This document shows positions 17,967 to 43,385 of a stretch of DNA of 64,000 bases, one piece after another; position 1 is the first letter of the stretch, and each line of letters opens with the position of its first letter. Below the pieces are notes generated by a model. It was not told the DNA's origin. It did not search any database and saw only the letters and a list, made by a program, of their open reading frames with translations. Source of the DNA: Patescibacteria group bacterium. GTDB lineage: Bacteria > Patescibacteriota > Patescibacteriia > Patescibacteriales > UBA12465. The translations under genes and the position numbers were made by a program. The stretch covers positions 3,046 to 67,045 of the forward strand of contig JBAYIC010000007.1 in assembly GCA_041665845.1 (NCBI GenBank). The letters are read 5' to 3'.

Positions 17967-17977
17967 TTTTTACTTAG

Positions 17978-18064
17978 CGGAGAGGGAGGGATTCGAACCC
18001 TCGGTACCCTTTCAGGCACGACAGTTTTCAAGACTGTTCTATTCAACCGCTCTAGCACCTCTCC
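17978..18064 (-). tRNA. tRNA-Ser(UGA)
   Basis: Cloverleaf folded by hand: acceptor GGAGAGG/CCTCTCC, anticodon arm ACAGT-CTTGAAA-ACTGT, long variable arm, T-arm GAGGGTTCGAATCCCTC. CCA is not encoded. Confidence 0.9.
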
Positions 18065-32470: not shown

Positions 32471-32647
32471 TTATGTCTCTATAATTTTATAATTCTTTTG
32501 AAGATACATAAGCTCTTCAACCTTATTCTTAATAATTTCATTTTTGGTATCACAACATTCATCCTGAATTAATAAATTCAAAATGGTTGCCAAGGTTCCA
32601 AAATAATCATCCGATTTTATGTGAAATTCTAGCGATTCAATGTTCAT
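32471..32647 (-). CDS. Unannotated 58-aa ORF (MNIESLEFHIKSDDYFGTLATILNLLIQDECCDTKNEIIKNKVEELMYLQKNYKIIET)
   Basis: Found by hand. Its ATG overlaps the TGA of the 534-aa gene (ATGA), and its stop lies 5 nt before the next ATG. Confidence 0.5.
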   Translation of the reverse strand: MNIESLEFHIKSDDYFGTLATILNLLIQDECCDTKNEIIKNKVEELMYLQKNYKIIET

Positions 32648-34248
32648 ACTTTTTGTATCTTAGAAATTACAACATTATAATTTAACATTCTTAGCCTTTT
32701 ACAAACATTTGATAATGCTATTTTACTAAAAAATGGTAAATTCAACTCTTCCGCCGATGAACTTATTATTGCAAAAACAATTTGATATTCAGTAGCATTT
32801 GGTTTACTATCCGTGTCAGAGAGTTTGCAGTCAGCAGGTAAAATATTATTTACGCCATCCCTAAAAGATTTCTCTTCCAAAAACAGTTCGCCAGATACCA
32901 GCCCCTGATTAAATAAATGGCTCAAAACGCTAGAACCGCCATATATCTTAACATGAATCAATCTTTTGTTTGATTTCGAAAACAAATCACAAAATTCTAC
33001 TTTATTATTTCCGCCTCCTATTTGGATTAATTTTTTATCAAAAAGAATATAATCATTATTGTCTTCGGATACTTTTTTGTTATATCCTCCCTCACCCTTG
33101 TCATCCCCTTTTCCTGCAAAAATATTTTCTTGATAATCAGGAAGCCCTAAATTTAACTTAGGCACCGAATCAAATCTTGAATTTATATCGCTAACAAAGC
33201 TGGCATTAATTTTATACCAATTTTTATTATTTAAAATATAATAATTCCCCTCTAAAGTCGTTTCGCAATATAAACAGCTATAAATGCTCCAATCAGCGAA
33301 TTCACTCTTCGTGAAATCATAAACTCTAAACACGTCATAATAGCATTTAAGCTTCTTGATATCTAAGTCATTTAATTTATCACCTAGATAGGCCTTAAAA
33401 TCTAATAAATGTAGATCCTCAAATTGATCTTGGCTACTTTTACTATACTTAAAACCTTCAATTCCAGACCACTCTATAACCTCAGGAACAGCCAACCAGA
33501 TTTTATCTAGATTTTCACCTTTAATTCTATTAACTAACTCTTCGTCTAATTTTTCTATCAAACCGCTATTATCGACTTTTCTTATATTATTAATCCAAGC
33601 AAAATTTTCTTTATAAGCCTCACTCTTATAATATTTAAGATACTCACTCAAGAATCCTTTTATTGTTTTATAATCAGATTCTATTGTTACATGGAAAGAA
33701 TCCCTCCCCGTTATTATCCCGCCTAAATCTTCAACGCTACACTTTCCCGTAACAACATTAACTAAGTCTTGCTCTATATCGACGCCAAAATCCTTTATCT
33801 CACCACTTTTAATAAGCTGCTCTCTGGTTTTCTTTCCGCTTAACGCAAGATCGACTTTGTCGACGCTTCTTAACGTATTTGGTGTAACTAAATTTAATGT
33901 AGTAAACAATCCAAAATCATCTTCACAAACGTCTTTTTTGAGCAGGCTTTTTCCATATCCAAAAACTAGGGCTAATACTCTCTCGTCAACTTCTGTTAAA
34001 AAAACAGCCCTTGTATTTGAGTTACAAAAGCTGATATCACCAAGGGTATCGATGCCAAAAAATTTTTTCAACCAGTTTGGTTCACTTTTTTTGGACTCGG
34101 AGAAATAAAGTGTCCCAATAATCTCATCACCATTTTTTATTTCTTCTTTTTCAAGCGCATCAAAATTATCCACAATATCTTCAAAATCTTTAAACTGTGT
34201 CTTTATGAAAAAAACGGCTATTTTATTTTTATTTTTTCTAGCTGGCAT
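32644..34248 (-). CDS. TIGR04141/DUF6119-like 'sporadically distributed' protein (534 aa)
   Basis: Length and blocks (LVFGYG, DDFGL..TLNLV, ITGRDS, EFCDL-x9-LIHVK..GSSVLSHLFNQG) match my memory of that family. Not verified. Confidence 0.55.
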   Translation of the reverse strand: MPARKNKNKIAVFFIKTQFKDFEDIVDNFDALEKEEIKNGDEIIGTLYFSESKKSEPNWLKKFFGIDTLGDISFCNSNTRAVFLTEVDERVLALVFGYGKSLLKKDVCEDDFGLFTTLNLVTPNTLRSVDKVDLALSGKKTREQLIKSGEIKDFGVDIEQDLVNVVTGKCSVEDLGGIITGRDSFHVTIESDYKTIKGFLSEYLKYYKSEAYKENFAWINNIRKVDNSGLIEKLDEELVNRIKGENLDKIWLAVPEVIEWSGIEGFKYSKSSQDQFEDLHLLDFKAYLGDKLNDLDIKKLKCYYDVFRVYDFTKSEFADWSIYSCLYCETTLEGNYYILNNKNWYKINASFVSDINSRFDSVPKLNLGLPDYQENIFAGKGDDKGEGGYNKKVSEDNNDYILFDKKLIQIGGGNNKVEFCDLFSKSNKRLIHVKIYGGSSVLSHLFNQGLVSGELFLEEKSFRDGVNNILPADCKLSDTDSKPNATEYQIVFAIISSSAEELNLPFFSKIALSNVCKRLRMLNYNVVISKIQKV

Positions 34249-34919: not shown

Positions 34920-36185
34920 ATGAGTATAAACTCTAAAGAAAAATTAAAAATTGAAGAAGTAAATATCGCCCTGCTAAAACAATCCGAATATAATCCCAGA
35001 AAATTAAGCGATAAACAAGAAGAAACACTAACTAAAAGCATTAAAGAATACCAATTATTAGATCCGCTAATAGTAAATAATTACAAAGGCAGAGAAAATA
35101 TTATTATTTCAGGTCATCAACGCTATAAGGTGGCAAAGAAACTGGGTTATAAAGAAGTTCCCGTGGTTTATGTTTGTCTAAATCTAGAAAATGAAAAAAG
35201 ATTAAATTTACTAATGAACAAAGCGCAAGGAGAATGGAATTATGAGCTTCTTCAGTCTTTCGACGTAGACCTATTGCTAGACACTGGTTTTGACGAAATA
35301 GATTTTTCTAAAATATTTGATGAGACTATGGAAACTGAAGATGACGGATTTAATATTAGCAAGGAATTAGAAAAAGCTAAGACTACCGATATCAAACCTG
35401 GCGACATATTTAAAATTTGTGGACAAACTGTTTTATGCGGCGATTCAACAGATCCGGAAGTTATTAAAAAATTAATGGGCGAAGAAAAAGCCGATATAAT
35501 CTTAAACGATCCTCCTTATAATCTGAATATTTCATACTCAAGGGGCTTAAGCGGTAACATGAACTACTGTGGTCAAGTTGATGATAATAAAAGTGATTCT
35601 GAATATCGAGAATTTATCAAAAAATCTCTGGCTAACGGATTAGCGGTCAGCAAAAAAAATTTACATGTTTTTTATTACCACGACCCAAAATATACGGGTA
35701 TGTTTCAAGATATCTATAAAGAACTGGGAGTCCAGTATAAAAGAACTGCCCTTTGGATCAAGAATAATGCCAACATGACCCCGCAAGTAGCATTCAATAG
35801 GTGCTACGAACCAATACTATATGGAACAACAGGAAAACCCTATCTTTCTGATGTTAAAAATTTTAACGAGATTATTAACAAAGAGGTTGGTGTCGGCAAT
35901 AGAGCAATAGAAGATATCCTTGACCTACTAGACATATGGCTGGTTAAACGTTTGCCTAGCACAGATTACGAGCATCCAACGGACAAAAATCCAACACTTC
36001 ATGAAAAAGCTTTAAGGCGGTGTACAAAAGTTAATGACGTTGTTCTTGATATGTTTGGCGGTGGAGGTTCTTTGGCTATCGCTTGTGCGCAATTAAAGCG
36101 TAGGAGTTTTATTTGCGAACAAAGCCCAATTTTTACACAATTAATAGTCAATCGACTTAAAATATATGAAAATACAAAAAATTAA
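34920..36185 (+). CDS. ParB-like nuclease domain fused to a beta-class N6-adenine/N4-cytosine DNA methyltransferase
   Basis: N-terminus EYNPRK...ISGHQRYKVAKKLG (ParB/Srx fold). Motif IV LNDPPY precedes motif I DMFGGGGS. Confidence 0.85.
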   Translation: MSINSKEKLKIEEVNIALLKQSEYNPRKLSDKQEETLTKSIKEYQLLDPLIVNNYKGRENIIISGHQRYKVAKKLGYKEVPVVYVCLNLENEKRLNLLMNKAQGEWNYELLQSFDVDLLLDTGFDEIDFSKIFDETMETEDDGFNISKELEKAKTTDIKPGDIFKICGQTVLCGDSTDPEVIKKLMGEEKADIILNDPPYNLNISYSRGLSGNMNYCGQVDDNKSDSEYREFIKKSLANGLAVSKKNLHVFYYHDPKYTGMFQDIYKELGVQYKRTALWIKNNANMTPQVAFNRCYEPILYGTTGKPYLSDVKNFNEIINKEVGVGNRAIEDILDLLDIWLVKRLPSTDYEHPTDKNPTLHEKALRRCTKVNDVVLDMFGGGGSLAIACAQLKRRSFICEQSPIFTQLIVNRLKIYENTKN

Positions 36186-36918
36186 ACGTGGGGATATTAT
36201 CCAACTCGGGGAGCATCGATTACTCTTCGGCGACTCACGCGACCAAGAAAAAATTAAAGAGCTTATTGGAAACAGTAAAATTAATTTAATATTAAGCGAC
36301 CCTCCTTATGGAATCGACTATGTCGCTAGTAAGTCGGGTTTTAGTCAGAGCCTTGGAAAGCCTAAGGATATAGCTAACGATCAACTTCAAAGTGAAGATG
36401 AATATATTAAATTTACAGAAGATTGGCTAAAAGTTATTCTGCCATATCTTGATAGAAAAAACTCTATCTATATATTCAACTCTGACAAGATGATATTTGC
36501 CTTAAGACAGGCCATGAAGAATATTGGCATATATTTTTCCCAGCTGTTAATCTGGGCAAAAAGTAATGCCGTTATAGGTAGACTGGACTATCTTCCAATG
36601 CACGAGTTAATCGCTTATGGTTGGTTTGGCACACATTCTTTCAAAAAAAGTAAAGATAAAAGCATTCTGTTTTGTCCAAAACCAAGCAAGAGCAAATTAC
36701 ACCCGACGATTAAACCCCTTTCACTTTTAAGACGGCTAATACTTAATAGTACTAATATTGGAGATGTTGTCTACGATGGTTTTGGCGGATCGGGTAGTAC
36801 ACTTATGGCAGCCGAAATGATAGGACGGAAATGTTTAATGGTTGAGACTGACGAGGAATACTGCCAAACAATAATTAACAGATATTATCGACTGAAAAAT
36901 ATATCTGAATCACTATGA
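36166..36918 (+). CDS. DNA methyltransferase (beta-class, DPPY)
   Basis: LSDPPYG ... DGFGGSGST. Overlaps the upstream methylase gene by 20 nt. Confidence 0.85.
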   Translation: MKIQKIKRGDIIQLGEHRLLFGDSRDQEKIKELIGNSKINLILSDPPYGIDYVASKSGFSQSLGKPKDIANDQLQSEDEYIKFTEDWLKVILPYLDRKNSIYIFNSDKMIFALRQAMKNIGIYFSQLLIWAKSNAVIGRLDYLPMHELIAYGWFGTHSFKKSKDKSILFCPKPSKSKLHPTIKPLSLLRRLILNSTNIGDVVYDGFGGSGSTLMAAEMIGRKCLMVETDEEYCQTIINRYYRLKNISESL

Positions 36919-37433
36919 GCGGGTATAATAAAAAGAATGTTACGGTGGCGGACATTCTTAAACGAAAGGAGCTTGAAAAAAATAAACAAGCTCAAAAAAA
37001 TAAACGCCAAGAAAACGACAATAAACGAAAACTGACTGCTATTGAAAAAAGACAACAGGAACAGAAGATGCAAATGATTGAAGAGATACGTAATGTTTAT
37101 ATTCCTTCTATTGCCTGCCAAAAAACTGGTATATCTAGAGCGACTCTATATCGTTGGATGGCTGATGATTATAATTTTAATAAAGAGTTTACAAAGAGTC
37201 GAGTGGAAGGACGAGGTGCTATAAATGATTTAGCTGAATCAAAAATTGTTAGTAAAATTAAAAACGATGACACCAAAGCAACAATTTTTTGGTTAACCCA
37301 TATGCATCCAAACTTCATTAATCCTATTCTTTCAATATCAGAGGAGACAAAAGAAAAAATGAAACTATCCCCCGAATATTTGACTGGTCTCGCCAAAAGA
37401 TTAGCTCAATGGAAAAGAGAAAACTTACACTAA
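36915..37433 (+). CDS. HTH protein, phage terminase-small-subunit/phBC6A51-like
   Basis: GISRATLYRWM HTH followed by ATIFWLTHMHPNF. ATGA overlap with the methylase gene. Confidence 0.45.
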   Translation: MSGYNKKNVTVADILKRKELEKNKQAQKNKRQENDNKRKLTAIEKRQQEQKMQMIEEIRNVYIPSIACQKTGISRATLYRWMADDYNFNKEFTKSRVEGRGAINDLAESKIVSKIKNDDTKATIFWLTHMHPNFINPILSISEETKEKMKLSPEYLTGLAKRLAQWKRENLH

Positions 37434-37434
37434 T

Positions 37435-37470
37435 AAAAAATACCGCAGTTTAGCCACTGCGGTATTTTTT
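37435..37470. terminator. Bidirectional intrinsic terminator
   Basis: 9-bp stem taccgcagt/actgcggta flanked by A6 and T6 runs, between convergent genes. Confidence 0.75.
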
Positions 37471-37861
37471 ATTCTTTAAATTTTTTAACTAAGAAATTAA
37501 AATTAGGATCACTCACAGAAATCGGCTCATTATTCTCATCAAATTGCACTGTAAGCGATAACACCTTTTTACTGCTCAAGGTTACTATAAGATATATTAC
37601 CCCTGGAAGTATCCAGAGAAGTAATAAAACAATAAAGGCTATTGGATTAAATCCGCTTAATTGTTTATTGAGGACAATATAATTATTTTCGTAATTTTCA
37701 GAAACAACTGAATAGGCGGGGTACTTCTGTTTTAAAAATTCAATAAACTTTTTAAACCTGCCATCTTTAATGATGTTTGCCTTATCAAGACTTTCGCCAC
37801 AATGGCGACACTTCTTAGCTTCGTCTTGTATTTCTTCGGCGCAAAACGGACACTTTTTCAT
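37469..37861 (-). CDS. Zinc-ribbon membrane protein (130 aa)
   Basis: MKKCPFCAEE...CRHCG followed by one TM helix. I chose the start at ATG 37861. The 5' extension in the track ORF (to 38074) runs through a palindromic non-coding structure. Confidence 0.6.
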   Translation of the reverse strand: MKKCPFCAEEIQDEAKKCRHCGESLDKANIIKDGRFKKFIEFLKQKYPAYSVVSENYENNYIVLNKQLSGFNPIAFIVLLLLWILPGVIYLIVTLSSKKVLSLTVQFDENNEPISVSDPNFNFLVKKFKE

Positions 37862-37888
37862 AAATTTATAAGTTATATTTATAAATAT

Positions 37889-38057
37889 GGATGTCCGAAT
37901 AAAACAAAAACGGACACCCGACCTAGTTGCAAAACTACATTTTGGGTTTCCGCAAGGATTCCTACTCATGCTGGTCGGGATGTCCGTTCCTGTGCATGAA
38001 TAGGAAAAATAGGCCAAAAATGACCAAAATCCTTGCGTATCTAAATGTAGTTTTGCA
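37889..38057 (-). promoter_or_regulatory. Nested imperfect palindrome, a candidate structured RNA or DNA site
   Basis: Paired arms 37928-42/38043-57 (15 bp), 37951-60/38028-37 (10 bp), 37961-71/37994-38004 (11 bp), plus 37911-23 complementary to both 37973-86 and 37889-97. Confidence 0.45.
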
Positions 38058-38121
38058 CTTAAAATATAACTCAAAATAGCCTAAAAGTAAAGCAAAGTTA
38101 CCAACAATTTGCCTACAGCTA

Positions 38122-39537
38122 ATGCCTAGACTTCCTATATTTATTGCGGCATTACTTGGTCATAACAACTATAACCATATGAACCAAGTAACTACAATTT
38201 TAAGCCCTAATGCAACCATACAGGGCCAAAACGGGGCTAATTTAGGGGTCTTGTCGCAAGAAACTCTCAAATATTGCCTCTATGCCCGTAAGTCGACAGA
38301 ATCGGAAGAAAGACAGGTATTATCAATCGATAGTCAAATTAAAGAAATGCTCGATTTGGCTACTAGAGAAAATCTCAATATTACGGAAATAAGGCGAGAA
38401 TCCCATAGCGCTAAAGAAGTTGGACAAAGACAAATATTTAACGAACTAGTAGCCGATATTAAACTCGGCAAATTTAATGCTATATTAACCTGGGCGCCAG
38501 ATCGTATATCAAGAAATGCTGGCGACCTTGGAGCAATAGTAGATTTAATTGATCAGGGCATACTTAAAGAAATAAGAACCTTTAGCCAGAGATTTACTAA
38601 TAATCCCAATGAGAAGTTCTTGTTGATGATTTTAGGATCACAAGCCAAACTAGAAAATGACAATAGGGGCGTAAATGTAAAACGAGGGTTGAGGACAAGA
38701 TGTGAGATGGGGTTATGGGTGGGACCTGCCCCGCTAGGTTATTTAAACCAAAACAGAATGGACAAAAAATGTCAGGTTATCGTTGACCCGCTTAGAGCCC
38801 CTGCCATTAAACAGATATTTGAGAAAGTAGCCTATGAAAAATATAGTGGTCGAAAATTATATCACTGGCTAGTCCATGAGCTTAACTTTTACACTCGAGG
38901 CAATAAGCCATTAACACTTAGCGGCATATACAGAATACTAGATAACACTTTTTATTACGGGGTATTTGAAAGACCAAAAGGAAGTGGTAATTGGTATCAG
39001 GGTAAGCATAAACCACTAATCACTCAGGACTTATTTGAAAAAGCGAAAGCCCAGCTTAAAAGAGATAATATTCAAAGAGAAAACAAGGAATTTGCTTTTA
39101 CTAAAATGTTTACCTGTGGATTTTGCGGATCTGGAATATCTGCAGAAAGTAAATATAAGCAATTGAAAGATGGCACTACCGCACACTATATTTATTATGG
39201 ATGTTCTAGGGGGAAAGATAGATTTTGTAAAAATAAATACATAAGAGAAGAGGAGCTTATTGAAGAATTACTGAAAATCATAGATAAATTAGATATGAAT
39301 GAATTGGGAATACTAACGAGAATGGAAATGGAGGTTGAACGACTTAATAAGTTTCAAAATATGGTATTTGGCGAAAAGCGGCTCATCAAAAAACAAAAAC
39401 CCGCAGTTGATATGCGAGTTTATGCTAAGTATGTACTTAAAGAAGGAAGTTCTATCGAGAAACGAGAACTACTGGCGAATTTAAGAAGTAAAATTAATCT
39501 TGAGAATAAGAAATTAATATTGCTAAATAAGTTATAG
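38122..39537 (+). CDS. Large serine recombinase
   Basis: Resolvase catalytic domain (YARKSTESEERQVLSIDSQ), recombinase domain, zinc ribbon (CGFCGS...YYGCSRG..FC) and a coiled-coil tail. The start could be ATG 38179. Confidence 0.9.
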   Translation: MPRLPIFIAALLGHNNYNHMNQVTTILSPNATIQGQNGANLGVLSQETLKYCLYARKSTESEERQVLSIDSQIKEMLDLATRENLNITEIRRESHSAKEVGQRQIFNELVADIKLGKFNAILTWAPDRISRNAGDLGAIVDLIDQGILKEIRTFSQRFTNNPNEKFLLMILGSQAKLENDNRGVNVKRGLRTRCEMGLWVGPAPLGYLNQNRMDKKCQVIVDPLRAPAIKQIFEKVAYEKYSGRKLYHWLVHELNFYTRGNKPLTLSGIYRILDNTFYYGVFERPKGSGNWYQGKHKPLITQDLFEKAKAQLKRDNIQRENKEFAFTKMFTCGFCGSGISAESKYKQLKDGTTAHYIYYGCSRGKDRFCKNKYIREEELIEELLKIIDKLDMNELGILTRMEMEVERLNKFQNMVFGEKRLIKKQKPAVDMRVYAKYVLKEGSSIEKRELLANLRSKINLENKKLILLNKL

Positions 39538-42500
39538 ATACTTATTCAAAATCATATCTTTTTTCTGTTTCGTTTCATTCAACTTTTGGTTTAATCCCAC
39601 AATTTCATCTTCAATTTTTACAATTTGATCAATAGCTTTTTTCTGGTCAACAAGAGAGGGTAAATTGCAAGTTTGATTATAAACGTCATTTCTATTTAAA
39701 CCAGGCACTCCAGCTCCTAAAATTAGATCCTCTAACTCTAGGCTAGCTAGGACATAGTAAAGAAATTTGTAATCAACATCTTCACTGTTTTTTTTAACAT
39801 AAAATGTAGTATCTATAGGATAATTATCCTCATCAATCCAATTAACTTTACCGGCTGATCCTTTACGACCAACGATTATAGTCGGACCCGTAACAATAAA
39901 ACTATTATGACGTCCAACAACACCATTGGAGCCCATCACTGGGTATTTCCCATTTATTCTCTCTCTTTCTGGTAAGGCGGAGCCATACTCAAGCGTCAAT
40001 ATATCTCCAATTCTAACATTTTTAAACTTATTAGAGGAAAATAAGTGTTTTTTTATCTTTTCTTTTAAAGCTTTTATTTTACCAACAATTTGTTCATCGC
40101 TCTTATTAATTTTTTCTATTTCTTCTAATATCTTATTCTGAGTGCTATTAGAAATCATCGGTATTTTAATCTTAGATAAATCGTCAGAGTAAACATGCGG
40201 CTGAGCCTGCCCCCTCTGCAATGTATAAATTTCATTCTGAGTGTTCTTTAAAAACTCATATAATAATTTTGTCTTTATACTGTTTTCGTCTTTTGACTTA
40301 ATTGTATTACAATCGGAAGCAAATATTGGTTTTCTAAAATAATTAACGAAACCAGCATAGGCGCCAGAGGCGCTTACGGTAATAATATTACCATCTCTAT
40401 TTGCTTTATTGTGAAAATAAGCAGGGGTTTGTCCTCCAGCAATAACAGGGATATCGCCTGCAGTAACCCCCTCCTGCGTAATTGATGTGCCCTTTTTTAT
40501 ATCAGCAATATCAGATAGTAAGTAAAATTTATCTGTTTTCCAAAGACTCTCAAATTTTATTTTTTTTTTAAAACTTAAAGAAATTGTTTTTTCAAAATCA
40601 ATCCTATCAAAACTCATCATATCAACCAAGTTTGCCCTAAAAACATGATTTTTTACTGTATCATCAATACTAGAACTATCATCACCTAAAAAGGCCTGAT
40701 AAATATAACTACTTGCCTTTTGTCGATTCTTCTGATCGGATGGATCAAACATTTTTGTGCACTCATCAATAGATTTATTTCTTTGAATTGGATGAATTCC
40801 TTCATAGCCACGTCTAAAACTAAACTCATACCCCAGGAATAATTTCTCTTCTTTTTTATCTCCCGATTTTACAATTACCACTTTTTGACTACAGCTTAAA
40901 ATAAAATAAAGTATTTTTTCCTTTTCTTTACGTATAATAATATCCTGTATTTCTTTTTCATTCTTAATCTTTATTTTTTCAAGATATTCTTTATATAAAA
41001 CATGTTTTTTAATTCTATCATTTGGTTTTCCCTGGCAAAAAGTTATATAGTCAGAAAAATCAAGTTTCTCCCAAACAAATTTTACGTATCTTGAAAATAC
41101 ATTTTCTATTCCGTTTACTGTTACATCATTAAAATTGTGAAAAAATTTATTTACTGATTCTTGAAAATTTTCCCATTCATAATTTGTTCGACGACGTAAA
41201 AATAACACCACCGTATTTGTTCCTGTCGCCATAAATGTACCTGAACCCAGTTCAGTAATACTAATAATCTCAAAATATTTAAACAAAATTTCTCTTGCCT
41301 TAGTATAAATACCAGCGTTACTTAGTATGCTTGATGGTAAAATGATGCCCGCCATCCCGCCGTCCTTTAGCAACTGCTTAGTCCTTTCTATAAATAGGCA
41401 CTCTATTTCCGAACTCTGGTCGGTCAATTTTGAAAATAAATCAAAAGATTCTCTCGCGCATTCTTCATTTAACGTCCCTTTAAAGGCCGAGACTGAATAT
41501 GGGGGATTTGAAATTACTAAATCAAACTGTTTATTGTCTTGATGAAAATTACTATCAGTTTCCTTTAATTTCCCACGATATTTATTCGGTTTATCAAACG
41601 TATTCAACCCATCTTCATGAATAACTTTAGCTAATCCATCACCATGCAAATAACAACCCACTTTGGCAGTTTTCACAAGACGATAGTCTTTCTCTATGCC
41701 ATAGAGATAGTCAAACGCCCAATTAAACTGGTCACTCTTCCAAGATTTAATTTTTTTGGCTGATTGCGGATTTAAAATATTTTCGTCAATAACATTAATA
41801 TTCTTTTGAATTTCATCCATTGATTCCGTTAAAAAATGACCACTGCCCGCGGCGTAATCAATTGTAAAAGGCAACAAATCAGTTGGATTGCCCAACTTTA
41901 ACTTTTCATCAATTATTTCTTTTATTGGCAAACTTCTTACAATAAATCTAGCTACTGGCACTGGAGTAAAAAATTGTCCGGACTCTTGTTTGAGCCCAGT
42001 AGTTAAGAGCAGTTCAAAAAAATCACCAAGATATTGATGTTTTTGATTATAACGAATTTTAAAGCCTTGTAACAACTCGACTACTTCTTTTACAACCTTC
42101 GCGTTATCTTCGAATGACGCATCATCAAAAACTTCTTTAAAAGCGAATTCATTATTCTTTTTAAGCCTAATTTCTGTCAATATTTTTAGAAAATCTGCTT
42201 TATACTTTGAATCAACTGCTCCAAATTTTTGTTCAAATTCTTGGTCGCTGACATCAGTAACCTCTTTTTCCAATAATTCGTGCATTCCTTTCTTGTACAG
42301 ATCCGTTAATCTTTTCTGAAATGAAATATTATCATCTTCTCCGTCTAACCATTGAAAATGCAACTGTTCATTATCAGATCTATTTTCATCAACAATTTTA
42401 CAAAGAAAAAGAGTAAAAATTTTATTAAAGGCATTAGGCTTGTCGGAAACGACATTCTGTCTTAAAATTTCTAGAAACCTATTAAAAATAAAACTACTAT

Positions 42501-43176
42501 CTTCTTGTTTAATTATTTTTAAATCCTTAGTTGTCAGAGCCTTGCTTTGATATTCGTAAGCATTAACCCAATCATCAAAAATTCCATTTAATTTTGTTAA
42601 TTTACTCCATCTCTCAAACAAATCTTTTACATTACCGGCCTCTCTGTAGTGGTCTTCAATTTTTACAATTTCATTCTTGTATTCTATTTTTTTATCAATA
42701 AAATCAGACGTGTATATTATTAAATATTCTGCATTTCTATCTTGTTGAAAATATGTAAAAATTTGTCCACCGTCTTTTTTCAGTTTTTTGCTTTCTTTTT
42801 CAAACTCAATTCCCCAAGTTTTACATTCAATCATTAGATATGCCTGTCCATTCTTTTCAATTAAAATATCGAGTCGCCCACTAGTACCATGCCCTGTAGG
42901 AAATATTTTTTCTAATATAATATCTTCTGGCTTATATCCCTTTTCCAATAATCTATTAACACACTCCAAAACAACCCAATTTTCTTCTTGAAAAAAATTT
43001 TGAGTAGTGCCACTGTCTGATCTTATTTTAGAGCCAAAATTAATTTTTTGTTCTTCAAAATCAACCTCAATAATATAATCATTGAATTTAGCAAATTTTT
43101 TCTGGAGAACACCCAATGCTCCTTCTTTAGATAAAAAGCCTAATTTTAGCAAAAATTCTTTCTTATTCATAGCCAT
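39532..43176 (-). CDS. Single-chain restriction-modification-specificity enzyme (Type IIB/IIG, AloI/CjeI-like)
   Basis: N-terminal PD-ExK (RLDILIE...MIECK). Gamma-class N6A methylase motifs (QFFTP, DYAAGSGHF, SNPPYS). Two C-terminal HsdS-like TRDs. Confidence 0.8.
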   Translation of the reverse strand: MAMNKKEFLLKLGFLSKEGALGVLQKKFAKFNDYIIEVDFEEQKINFGSKIRSDSGTTQNFFQEENWVVLECVNRLLEKGYKPEDIILEKIFPTGHGTSGRLDILIEKNGQAYLMIECKTWGIEFEKESKKLKKDGGQIFTYFQQDRNAEYLIIYTSDFIDKKIEYKNEIVKIEDHYREAGNVKDLFERWSKLTKLNGIFDDWVNAYEYQSKALTTKDLKIIKQEDSSFIFNRFLEILRQNVVSDKPNAFNKIFTLFLCKIVDENRSDNEQLHFQWLDGEDDNISFQKRLTDLYKKGMHELLEKEVTDVSDQEFEQKFGAVDSKYKADFLKILTEIRLKKNNEFAFKEVFDDASFEDNAKVVKEVVELLQGFKIRYNQKHQYLGDFFELLLTTGLKQESGQFFTPVPVARFIVRSLPIKEIIDEKLKLGNPTDLLPFTIDYAAGSGHFLTESMDEIQKNINVIDENILNPQSAKKIKSWKSDQFNWAFDYLYGIEKDYRLVKTAKVGCYLHGDGLAKVIHEDGLNTFDKPNKYRGKLKETDSNFHQDNKQFDLVISNPPYSVSAFKGTLNEECARESFDLFSKLTDQSSEIECLFIERTKQLLKDGGMAGIILPSSILSNAGIYTKAREILFKYFEIISITELGSGTFMATGTNTVVLFLRRRTNYEWENFQESVNKFFHNFNDVTVNGIENVFSRYVKFVWEKLDFSDYITFCQGKPNDRIKKHVLYKEYLEKIKIKNEKEIQDIIIRKEKEKILYFILSCSQKVVIVKSGDKKEEKLFLGYEFSFRRGYEGIHPIQRNKSIDECTKMFDPSDQKNRQKASSYIYQAFLGDDSSSIDDTVKNHVFRANLVDMMSFDRIDFEKTISLSFKKKIKFESLWKTDKFYLLSDIADIKKGTSITQEGVTAGDIPVIAGGQTPAYFHNKANRDGNIITVSASGAYAGFVNYFRKPIFASDCNTIKSKDENSIKTKLLYEFLKNTQNEIYTLQRGQAQPHVYSDDLSKIKIPMISNSTQNKILEEIEKINKSDEQIVGKIKALKEKIKKHLFSSNKFKNVRIGDILTLEYGSALPERERINGKYPVMGSNGVVGRHNSFIVTGPTIIVGRKGSAGKVNWIDEDNYPIDTTFYVKKNSEDVDYKFLYYVLASLELEDLILGAGVPGLNRNDVYNQTCNLPSLVDQKKAIDQIVKIEDEIVGLNQKLNETKQKKDMILNKYL

Positions 43177-43239: not shown

Positions 43240-43264
43240 CAAAAAGCCCCGTAAATACGGGGCT
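43240..43264 (-). terminator. Intrinsic terminator after tRNA-Ser(GCU)
   Basis: Stem agccccg/cggggct followed on the minus strand by TTTTT. Confidence 0.7.
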
Positions 43265-43293
43265 TCATGGGTCTGTCCGATACTAAATTGTCT

Positions 43294-43385
43294 TGGCGGA
43301 GAGGCGGGGATTCGAACCCCGGATAGAGGTAAACCCCTATAACAGGTTAGCAACCTGCCGCTTTCGACCGCTCAGCCACCTCTCC
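43294..43385 (-). tRNA. tRNA-Ser(GCU)
   Basis: Hand fold: acceptor GGAGAGG, anticodon arm CAGGT-TGCTAAC-ACCTG, long variable arm, T-arm CCGGGGTTCGAATCCCCG. CCA is encoded. Confidence 0.9.

Follow-up and report, generated by a model that had tools for sequence, protein, structure and literature searches.

Short structured RNAs transcribed from the 5' end of mobile-element operons, such as the CI RNA of satellite phage P4 and the c4 RNA of P1 and P7, engage in RNA-RNA pairing that is tied to premature termination. Patescibacteria, or candidate phyla radiation (CPR), make up a large share of bacterial diversity and are uncultured symbionts with tiny genomes, and, to our knowledge, their gene regulation and mobile elements are almost entirely unexplored. 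In this work, a 64,000-nucleotide stretch of a Patescibacteria genome (assembly GCA_041665845.1, contig JBAYIC010000007.1; 32% G+C) was analyzed, with the focus on a nested palindrome that lies next to the gene of a large serine recombinase (LSR). This stretch is referred to as the window, and positions are those of the window unless a comparison locus, designated by an L number, is named. The described RNA that is closest in position is LOOT (Rfam RF03000), one of the 224 motifs of Weinberg et al. 2017, its function unknown (PMC5737381). Rfam files LOOT as 'Gene; sRNA', and no functional study of it was found in the literature.

Our comparison of the palindrome with its homologues gives good support to the conclusion that positions 37901-38060 are the gene for a previously undescribed structured RNA of approximately 160 nt, which is read on the minus strand (38060 to 37901) and is found in mobile elements of Patescibacteria. 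No paper describing this RNA was found in the literature. It is similar to the P4 CI and c4 RNAs in having repeated boxes opposite one segment; in this case CGGACAY, which the apical and internal loops contain and which occurs again downstream, is set against GUGUCCG. However, there is no sequence or structural homology to those RNAs, and the c4 families of Rfam do not match the window. The locus also resembles the integron platform (intI, Pc, attI/attC) in that the recombinase gene is divergent from a promoter and a folded palindrome is followed by variable genes. In contrast to the integron platform, the RNA is present in a single copy per locus with no repeats between cassettes, the recombinase is a serine and not a tyrosine recombinase, and the RNA has a promoter and a U-run of its own. 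An integron attC-like array, which was suggested by the variable open reading frames (ORFs) near the recombinase, was ruled out by the finding of exactly one sense-strand match to the covariance model (R1, described below) per locus in 180 loci.

A structured RNA family on the minus strand

The features of the RNA are listed in the order of transcription.

38086..38091, minus strand: -35 box TTTACT, inside the conserved block CTTTACTTTT; found by promoter scan and kept in approximately 100 homologues
38063..38068, minus strand: -10 box TATATT, 17 nt after the -35 box; found by promoter scan, with (GC)TATATT conserved in the family alignment
37901..38060, minus strand: structured RNA; full match to R1 (158.6 bits) and the sole copy in the window
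38043..38057, minus strand: 5' arm of P1 (UGCAAAACUACAUUU); inverted repeat I1, with changes on both sides in 8 of 14 pairs (helix 1)
38028..38037, minus strand: 5' arm of P2 (CGCAAGGAUU); inverted repeat I10, with changes on both sides in 4 of 7 pairs (helix 2)
38012..38025, minus strand: P2a, a small side hairpin between P2 and P3 (GGUCAUUUUUGGCC), from folding; its sequence and length vary in the family
37994..38006, minus strand: 5' arm of P3; inverted repeat I5, with changes on both sides in 11 of 11 pairs (helix 3)
37973..37986, minus strand: apical-loop strand of the pseudoknot (CGGACAUCCCGACC); from complementarity, covariation (helix 4) and duplex energy
37959..37971, minus strand: 3' arm of P3; I5 and covariation
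37951..37960, minus strand: 3' arm of P2; I10 and covariation
37943..37950, minus strand: conserved internal loop, 3' side, between P2 and P1; consensus CGGAYAC(C) in the family alignment (A4), the window having GAAACCCA after the CG that closes the 3' arm of P2
37928..37942, minus strand: 3' arm of P1; I1 and covariation
37911..37923, minus strand: 3' tail strand of the pseudoknot (GGUCGGGUGUCCG); from complementarity, covariation and duplex energy
37901..37910, minus strand: U-run (UUUUUGUUUU), the proposed termination point; it abuts the pseudoknot helix directly
37889..37897, minus strand: downstream complement of the tail (CGGACAUCC); from direct repeat D5 and folding, giving an alternative hairpin with the U-run as its loop

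The palindrome consists of a 15-nt inverted repeat that is 100% complementary (I1, 37928-37942 and 38043-38057; 15/15), a 10-nt repeat that is likewise 100% complementary (I10, 37951-37960 and 38028-38037; 10/10), and a 13-nt repeat with 92% complementarity (I5, 37959-37971 and 37994-38006; 12/13). The last of these includes an 11-bp arm with one mismatch that had been described in an earlier note on the window (the original prediction), and all three nested arm pairs of that note were located. In addition, GGATGTCCG is present twice in the same direction (D5, 37889-97 and 37978-86), and 37904-19 is complementary to 37978-93 (I3). On the minus strand, the tail (37923-37911) complements both the apical loop (37986-37973) and the downstream segment (37897-37889), as expected from the two mutually exclusive pairings that had been predicted. 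The pairing and folding of the palindrome are beyond chance, with a minimum free energy of -65.3 kcal/mol for the plus strand (z = -7.4) and -75.2 kcal/mol for the minus strand (z = -9.4), values that were equaled by 0 of 200 shuffled sequences on either strand.

The first search set consisted of 80 genome loci that were fetched by homology to the LSR. The element was present at the equivalent place and orientation in five of these loci (L001, L003, L005, L016 and L021), and an extra copy was found elsewhere in L008. A search pattern derived from these first homologues, CCGACC-N45-70-GGTCGGRTGYMCGTTTT, matched two copies on one IMG/VR contig and 98 metagenome stretches, of which only 2 look like chance matches. 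An alignment of 39 diverse homologues (A4) was the source of covariance model R1, and searching with R1 resulted in further divergent members upstream of the LSRs in L051, L055, L047 and L056. The family comprises approximately 100 homologues, which come from genomes, from metagenomes and from one viral contig; groundwater, lake and digester samples (Ga0172381, Ga0265297 and others) are among the source environments. When the 260-bp intergenic region was compared with public phage and plasmid records using blastn in 'distant' mode, no match was obtained. Known RNA families were searched with cmscan, as the original prediction had proposed, and none matched: with the 4227 models of Rfam 15 and E values of up to 10, positions 36500-39500 gave only chance-level matches that lie outside the element or barely touch it, none near the gathering score. 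The scan of the whole window at the gathering threshold returned 3 tRNAs only, and ARAGORN found no tRNA or tmRNA at the site.

Covariation in homologous elements, another check that had been proposed, revealed strong compensatory change. In A4, the positions of P1, P2, P3 and the pseudoknot were 97.1% paired, compared to 35-43% when the 3' partners were slid by 1-3 columns, and 196 cells with changes on both sides were counted, compared to 7-30 in the slid controls. None of 500 shuffles reached the observed values. The nested helices and the loop-tail pseudoknot are real structures that this covariation upholds, and a hairpin at the P2a position is present, as judged by eye, in most members of the alignment.

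The strand of the RNA was determined from the kinds of mismatch that are tolerated. When the 39 homologues were read on the minus strand, P1-P3 contained 96 G-U cells and 22 A-C cells, and the excess of G-U over A-C indicates that the functional strand is the complement of the window's plus strand. In the window, as had been noticed, it is only the minus-strand reading that turns the mismatches into G-U pairs, and this property extends to the family; together with the covariation, the asymmetry bears out a minus-strand RNA upstream of the following gene, which encodes a zinc-ribbon membrane protein (ATG at 37861). The same data bear on the other possibility raised in the original prediction, namely that the palindrome is a DNA site for the adjacent LSR (attP-like, cruciform or oriT-like). 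The palindromic sequence itself would suit such a site, but a G-U excess is unexpected in duplex DNA, the stems drift with their pairing kept whereas recombinase sites conserve sequence, and the conserved unit runs from a promoter to a U-run.

A 201-aa ORF reads through the element and contains the zinc-ribbon gene at its 3' end, and its proving to be a conserved protein had been named as evidence against a structured element. The zinc-ribbon homologues begin at the equivalent of ATG 37861, and the variation in the stretch upstream consists of compensatory pairs and of indels whose lengths are not multiples of three. In A4 these are indels of 1, 2 and 5 nt, which are accompanied by paired compensatory substitutions across the element. 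The N-terminal extension of the ORF was ruled out as coding sequence by the frame-breaking indels, the pairing pattern, the starts of the zinc-ribbon homologues and the presence of different ORFs at other loci.

A single promoter-like site was found on the minus strand, TTTACT-17-TATATT (38091-38063), which is directly upstream of the RNA and is separated from P1 by about 3-5 nt. The predicted promoter is of the sigma-70 type, and the transcript probably starts at about 38060-38058. The block from CTTTACTTTT to (GC)TATATT is conserved throughout the family, with the -35 variants TTGATT or TTGAAT in some members at unchanged spacing. When copies next to an LSR were compared with copies next to a tRNA-Ser gene, two settings that are described below, the homology started exactly at the -35 box.

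The loop-tail pseudoknot and the U-run

A G+C-rich helix of 12-13 bp with a one-base bulge (-25.6 kcal/mol) joins the apical loop to the tail and ends at 37911. In the main set of homologues, which was selected by the search pattern, only one pseudoknot pair varies, and it is AU in 25 sequences, GU in 12 and GC in 2, but never A-C. The members found only with R1 (L051, L055 and L047) were not constrained by the pattern, and in these the loop and the tail are altered together: L055 has the loop GGGGCAG.CCGAGU and the tail GCUCGG.CUGUCCC, and L051 has the loop GGGUAGCUGAGU and the tail ACUCGGCUACCC. Cognate duplexes of loop and tail had energies of -23.5 to -25.6 kcal/mol, while L051 or L055 with a non-cognate partner gave -6 to -19 kcal/mol. 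UUUUUG directly follows the tail, also in divergent members outside the pattern selection. The internal loop CGGAYAC (A4 columns about 138-146) is nearly invariant and repeats the first (5') half of the loop strand, and it could be a third partner of the tail; it changed in step with the tail in L055 and L016, but not in L051 or L147.

The region past the U-run is unconserved, yet it usually holds a short complement to part of the tail. The duplex of tail and downstream region had a mean energy of -11.9 kcal/mol, compared to -5.7 kcal/mol in shuffles and -7.8 kcal/mol when the segment 80 nt further on was used, and it reached -8 kcal/mol or better in 78% of members. By these energies the downstream complement is selected for, and the second partner of the tail, seen initially in the window, recurs in most homologues in spite of the lack of conservation around it. 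The downstream hairpin forms only after the polymerase passes the U-run and it excludes the pseudoknot, so it would be relevant only to read-through transcripts.

A different repeat in this region was examined and set aside. The exact 11-nt repeat AAAACGGACAC (D3) is located at 37907-37917 in the tail region of the RNA and at 37843-37853 inside the zinc-ribbon ORF. It corresponds to Cys-Pro-Phe-Cys codons on the other strand, is present in some zinc-ribbon loci only, and is absent from loci with other ORFs, and it is probably a coincidence of CPxC codons.

The 3' end of the RNA is similar to intrinsic terminators, attenuators and the expression platforms of riboswitches in that a G+C-rich helix lies 0-1 nt before a U-run, the 3' strand of the helix has exclusive partners, and the whole lies between a promoter and candidate target genes. 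In contrast to intrinsic terminators and attenuators, the helix in the window is a pseudoknot whose upstream arm lies about 50 nt off in the apical loop. A classical antiterminator also differs, because the competing partner in the window RNA follows the U-run and cannot act as one.

From these features, a leader or attenuator RNA whose pseudoknot terminates transcription, and which by this means gates the variable cargo genes of a Patescibacteria integrative element, is the best reading, and one that we consider evenly balanced between right and wrong. Its main arguments are that the G+C-rich helix ends at the U-tract and that the same geometry recurs in LOOT. According to this model, the sigma-70-type promoter would give rise to a minus-strand RNA of approximately 160 nt, from 38060 to 37901, that folds as one long bent hairpin, in which P1 is separated from P2 by the internal loop and P2 from P3 by the side hairpin P2a. 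A predicted 180-degree bend at the internal loop (CGGAYAC) would place the tail near the apical loop. The 13-nt tail would then pair with the apical loop of P3 to form the pseudoknot helix ending at UUUUUG, and this helix would take the part of an intrinsic-terminator stem, with its upstream arm offered by the pre-folded scaffold. If the pseudoknot forms, transcription would stop at the U-run and a compact small RNA, possibly with a function of its own, would be released. If the loop is unavailable, the polymerase would read through into the cargo ORF or ORFs 40-70 nt further on; in the read-through transcript the downstream complement would capture the tail, the U-run would become the loop of a hairpin, and the pseudoknot would be locked out.

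Several points weigh against the attenuator model. The chief weakness is that the start site, the 3' end and any read-through are predictions from sequence. The terminator scan made no call at the U-run. The G+C-rich helix directly before the U-tract is what is expected of an intrinsic terminator, but there is no local hairpin before the U-run, the upstream arm being roughly 50 nt from the tail, and termination by a pseudoknot would be unusual. The search pattern fixed most of the loop and tail bases, so that the pseudoknot covariation in the main family comes from few sequences. Finally, the AT-rich spacer before the ORF could hide a second promoter, for which TTGTTT within the U-run and TATAAA 18 nt later are a weak -35/-10 candidate. 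The U-run as the -35 box of such a promoter is weakly possible in the window and was judged by eye to be a misfit in two LOOT loci. If the cargo does have a promoter of its own, the RNA could be a free-standing small RNA.

Such a trans-acting small RNA of the mobile element, with the pseudoknot and U-run ending and stabilizing it, the ORF using its own signals, and the target located elsewhere (for example, a host or phage RNA or protein), is in our estimate rather unlikely. The promoter and terminator-like 3' end are consistent with it, as are the high conservation of the loop and internal-loop sequences, which would suit a protein- or RNA-binding surface, the Rfam type of the positional analogue LOOT, and cargo families that are too varied for a gene-specific regulator. 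However, nearly all loci have a co-oriented ORF within 40-70 nt, with no other conserved promoter in the spacer between the U-run and the ORF, and the selected downstream complement would matter only in read-through transcripts. When up to 3 mismatches were allowed, complements of the tail at other places in the 64-kb window were no commoner than expected by chance. The small RNA and attenuator readings are not exclusive, since attenuation, too, yields a short RNA, and a ligand- or protein-operated switch is likewise compatible with them.

A switch of the latter kind would be a riboswitch-like or protein-binding sensor, in which the bent hairpin and pseudoknot serve as the aptamer for a small molecule or for a protein of the element or host, and binding decides between termination and read-through. 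Both the apical loop (ACAGGAACGG..CCGACC) and the internal loop (CGGAYAC) contain invariant unpaired nucleotides beside freely covarying stems, as in aptamers and ribozymes; these point in this direction, and so do the two mutually exclusive partners of the tail. We nevertheless regard a sensor as quite improbable: the controlled genes have no shared function, unlike those of metabolite riboswitches, the context offers no candidate ligand or binding protein, and no Rfam riboswitch was matched.

LOOT RNA beside the same recombinase family

Several LSR loci that do not have the window-type RNA have strongly folding regions upstream of the recombinase. Rfam identifies these regions as LOOT, with scores of 68-94 bits, and they are in the equivalent position and orientation. 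The copies are listed in the coordinates of each locus, in which the LSR is on the plus strand at about 5001.

L044, 555-682, minus strand: LOOT
L046, 4663-4785, minus strand: LOOT
L053, 4743-4861, minus strand: LOOT
L069, 4680-4803, minus strand: LOOT
L070, 4660-4785, minus strand: LOOT
L075, 4656-4781, minus strand: LOOT

With a profile search, LOOT was found in 16 of the 80 LSR loci, these six and weaker copies in 10 more. LOOT is similar to the window RNA in size and in its setting, as it is divergent from and upstream of homologues of the window's LSR in metagenome-assembled genomes (MAGs) of Patescibacteria and is followed by co-oriented ORFs. It is also similar in its 3' design, which consists of a long hairpin whose apical loop is paired to a 3' tail, with a U-run (in most cases UUUUUG) next to the tail; these features were derived here and are not in the Rfam definition. 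The LOOT pseudoknot, which lies outside the 121-nt Rfam model, consists of 10 bp between the apical loop of the long hairpin (P2) and the 3' tail. It was 99.2% paired, compared to 36-50% in slid controls, and 7 of the 10 pairs showed compensatory change. The U-run starts 0-1 nt after the tail and is U4-6G in 12 of the 16 loci; the other four have the shorter or interrupted CUCUUUG, CUUUGUG and CUUUAUG. Visual inspection of six aligned LOOT loci showed a downstream complement that could take over the tail, leaving the U-run in the loop.

In contrast to these likenesses, LOOT is made up of four separate hairpins with GAAA-type loops, the first of them CCUAAaCC...GCAUGG, whereas the window RNA is one nested three-helix hairpin, and no sequence or fold homology between the two is detectable. 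The Rfam model of LOOT did not match the window even at E values of up to 10, and R1 gave no significant match (E below 0.1) to the LOOT loci. No search pattern had selected for the pseudoknot and U-run in LOOT, and two unrelated folds with one 3' design argue that the design is functional. The window RNA is best filed as a new structured-RNA family that is a positional and architectural analogue of LOOT and not a member of it.

In four of the LOOT loci (L070, L075, L044 and L046), a repeat of the long hairpin's 5' arm (for example, AAAACUCGCUACAAG) is found only a few bases upstream of the ATG of the following ORF. This repeat co-varies with the hairpin between loci, so that the 3' arm of the hairpin could alternatively pair with the translation start region.

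The finding that two RNA families, the window type and LOOT, share the place next to one recombinase family, each a non-coding RNA beside a recombinase gene in a mobile element, raises the possibility of an RNA cofactor or guide for the recombinase, comparable to IS110 bridge RNA or IS607/TnpB omega RNA. We judge this to be hardly credible. The loops are the most conserved parts of the RNA and the stems the most variable, which is the opposite of a programmable guide, and the complement of the loop is the RNA's own tail. Furthermore, half of the RNA loci are not beside a recombinase, most recombinase loci show neither RNA, and the protein has the ordinary Resolvase/Recombinase/Zn-ribbon architecture.

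Genomic setting in an integrative element

The typical order of the homologous loci, with the RNA read left to right, is cargo, LSR (leftward), RNA, one to five co-oriented ORFs, and a convergent backbone that consists of a large-terminase-like protein (Terminase_6C) in some loci, a helix-turn-helix (HTH) protein, a methylase and a ParB-methylase. Every sufficiently long locus has a co-oriented ORF after the RNA, which starts about 200-235 nt from the 5' end of the RNA and about 40-70 nt past the U-run. The first ORFs belong to many unrelated families, including zinc-ribbon proteins, bPH_2 (bacterial PH domain), SNase (staphylococcal nuclease), LEM-3 GIY-YIG and several with no Pfam match. The original prediction had offered a cis-regulatory RNA switch for the zinc-ribbon gene; the RNA part of that proposal agrees with our data, while the specificity for one gene does not, since the following ORF differs in family between loci.

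The linkage of RNA and recombinase was determined in the 67 informative loci, defined as those with at least 900 nt of upstream sequence. In 33 of the 67, an LSR is the divergent neighbor within 2.5 kb upstream, and in most of those 33 it is directly adjacent; the palindrome is kept next to the recombinase in these relatives, as had been suggested, but not in the remaining 34. In the window and in many homologues, the RNA is 60-120 bp upstream of the recombinase gene. Some other loci have co-oriented cargo ORFs between the LSR and the RNA. In a third group (L008/L110, L111, L124, L154 and L166), the RNA is 100-280 nt downstream of a tRNA-Ser gene with the anticodon CGA, GCT or GGA, and the LSR is convergent and lies beyond the cargo. 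Conversely, at least 63 of the 80 homologous recombinase loci do not have the RNA.

The tRNA-Ser genes also mark where the elements meet host DNA. In 9 loci (including L001, L004, L006, L008, L139, L152, L156 and L166) and in the window, the sequence immediately after the CCA end is AGACAATTTAGTATCGG, although the tRNA-Ser genes differ in their anticodons. In the tRNA-Ser-adjacent loci, the junction with host DNA is at AGACAATTTAGTATCGG or its equivalent, 100-280 bp outside the RNA, with the RNA promoter and a terminator hairpin in between. This indicates that the integration junction is at the 3' ends of tRNA-Ser genes, and elements placed there imply that the RNA unit is a module inside the element and not the junction. 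The end of conservation at AAAACAAAAACGG had been considered as the end of the element and was ruled out: the LSR on one flank and the HTH and methylase genes on the opposite flank all belong to the conserved backbone, and it is the tRNA-Ser 3' end that forms the real junction. A housekeeping RNA (6S or SRP-like) that happens to lie beside tRNA-Ser was also ruled out, as the RNA is always found with backbone genes of the element, and twice on one viral contig. In the window, a second tRNA-Ser (TGA) is found at 17977-18064, 25 kb to the left of the tRNA-Ser(GCT) region (43260-43385), and apart from its 3' end nothing else matches the 3' end of tRNA-Ser(GCT); the whole stretch from 18 to 43 kb may be island DNA.

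These distances and counts complete the case on a DNA site for the LSR, which we find very improbable. The position 60-120 bp from the recombinase gene would be expected of such a site, but 34 of the 67 informative loci have no recombinase within 2.5 kb upstream, the great majority of the recombinase loci do not have the RNA, and the host junction at the tRNA-Ser loci lies outside it. The att sites of LSRs are described as about 40-50 bp with abutting half-sites (PMC12286644), compared to which the nested palindrome, at 130 bp, is much longer.

The genes around the RNA in the window are as follows.

32644-34248, minus strand: DUF6119 protein
34920-36185, plus strand: DNA methylase with a ParB domain
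36166-36918, plus strand: second methylase
36915-37433, plus strand: 172-aa HTH protein, weakly similar to the small terminase subunit
37469-37861, minus strand: zinc-ribbon membrane protein of 130 aa, ATG at 37861, the first cargo ORF after the RNA
38122-39537, plus strand: LSR, divergent from the RNA; Pfam Resolvase, Recombinase and Zn_ribbon_recom
39532-43176, minus strand: type IIG restriction-modification fusion
43294-43385, minus strand: tRNA-Ser(GCT)

The true start of the LSR is probably the Met at 38179 and not 38122, because its homologues are 435-455 aa long and cover 89-96% of the ORF. In this region (38122-38200), the start codon is bracketed by a 9-bp perfect inverted repeat (38152-38160 and 38183-38191), and the leader blocks TTGCGTCATTA and GGCCTAGACTTCC are conserved in LSR-adjacent loci. 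The conservation of the LSR across many Patescibacteria lineages is unusually high; its homologues number in the thousands at 60-94% identity, and the named ones are almost all from Patescibacteria/CPR MAGs; LSR-bearing MAG records that are labeled Gammaproteobacteria, Flavobacteriaceae or Izemoplasmatales are probably binning or naming errors. The LSR is often present in at least two copies per genome or even per contig (L007/L009, L043/L078, L059/L060, L045/L050, L058/L065 and L011/L064). On a 32.5-kb viral contig (IMGVR_UViG_3300042286_000458; L081 and L082), two diverged copies of a module were found that are 75-88% identical, the module consisting of the LSR, the RNA, a 138-aa membrane protein, the HTH protein, the methylase and the ParB-methylase. 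Between the convergent HTH and zinc-ribbon genes of the window, an 18-bp-stem hairpin with a flanking A-run and T-run (37432-37473) drew several chance matches in Rfam and is likely a bidirectional terminator.

In summary, the window RNA represents a family of approximately 100 members that combines strong covariation and a complex fold with a promoter and an unusual pseudoknot resembling a terminator, and that heads the variable cargo of a widespread integrative element. For the orphan motif LOOT, a host lineage is now provided, together with its genomic context and one additional pseudoknot. As a tentative and, in our opinion, unlikely extension, the window RNA and LOOT may belong together, as two different folds, in a new class of riboregulator that is carried by Patescibacteria mobile elements and in which the pseudoknot of loop and nascent tail is itself the terminator. 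A protein, RNA or small molecule that occupies the loop, as a signal of the element's life cycle or of phage attack, would then switch on the cargo, perhaps for defense or competition, or, more boldly, the RNA might work with the recombinase module, for example, in controlling integration or excision. If the pseudoknot does terminate transcription, it would be an uncommon mechanism and may provide a handle on the control of cargo in these elements.

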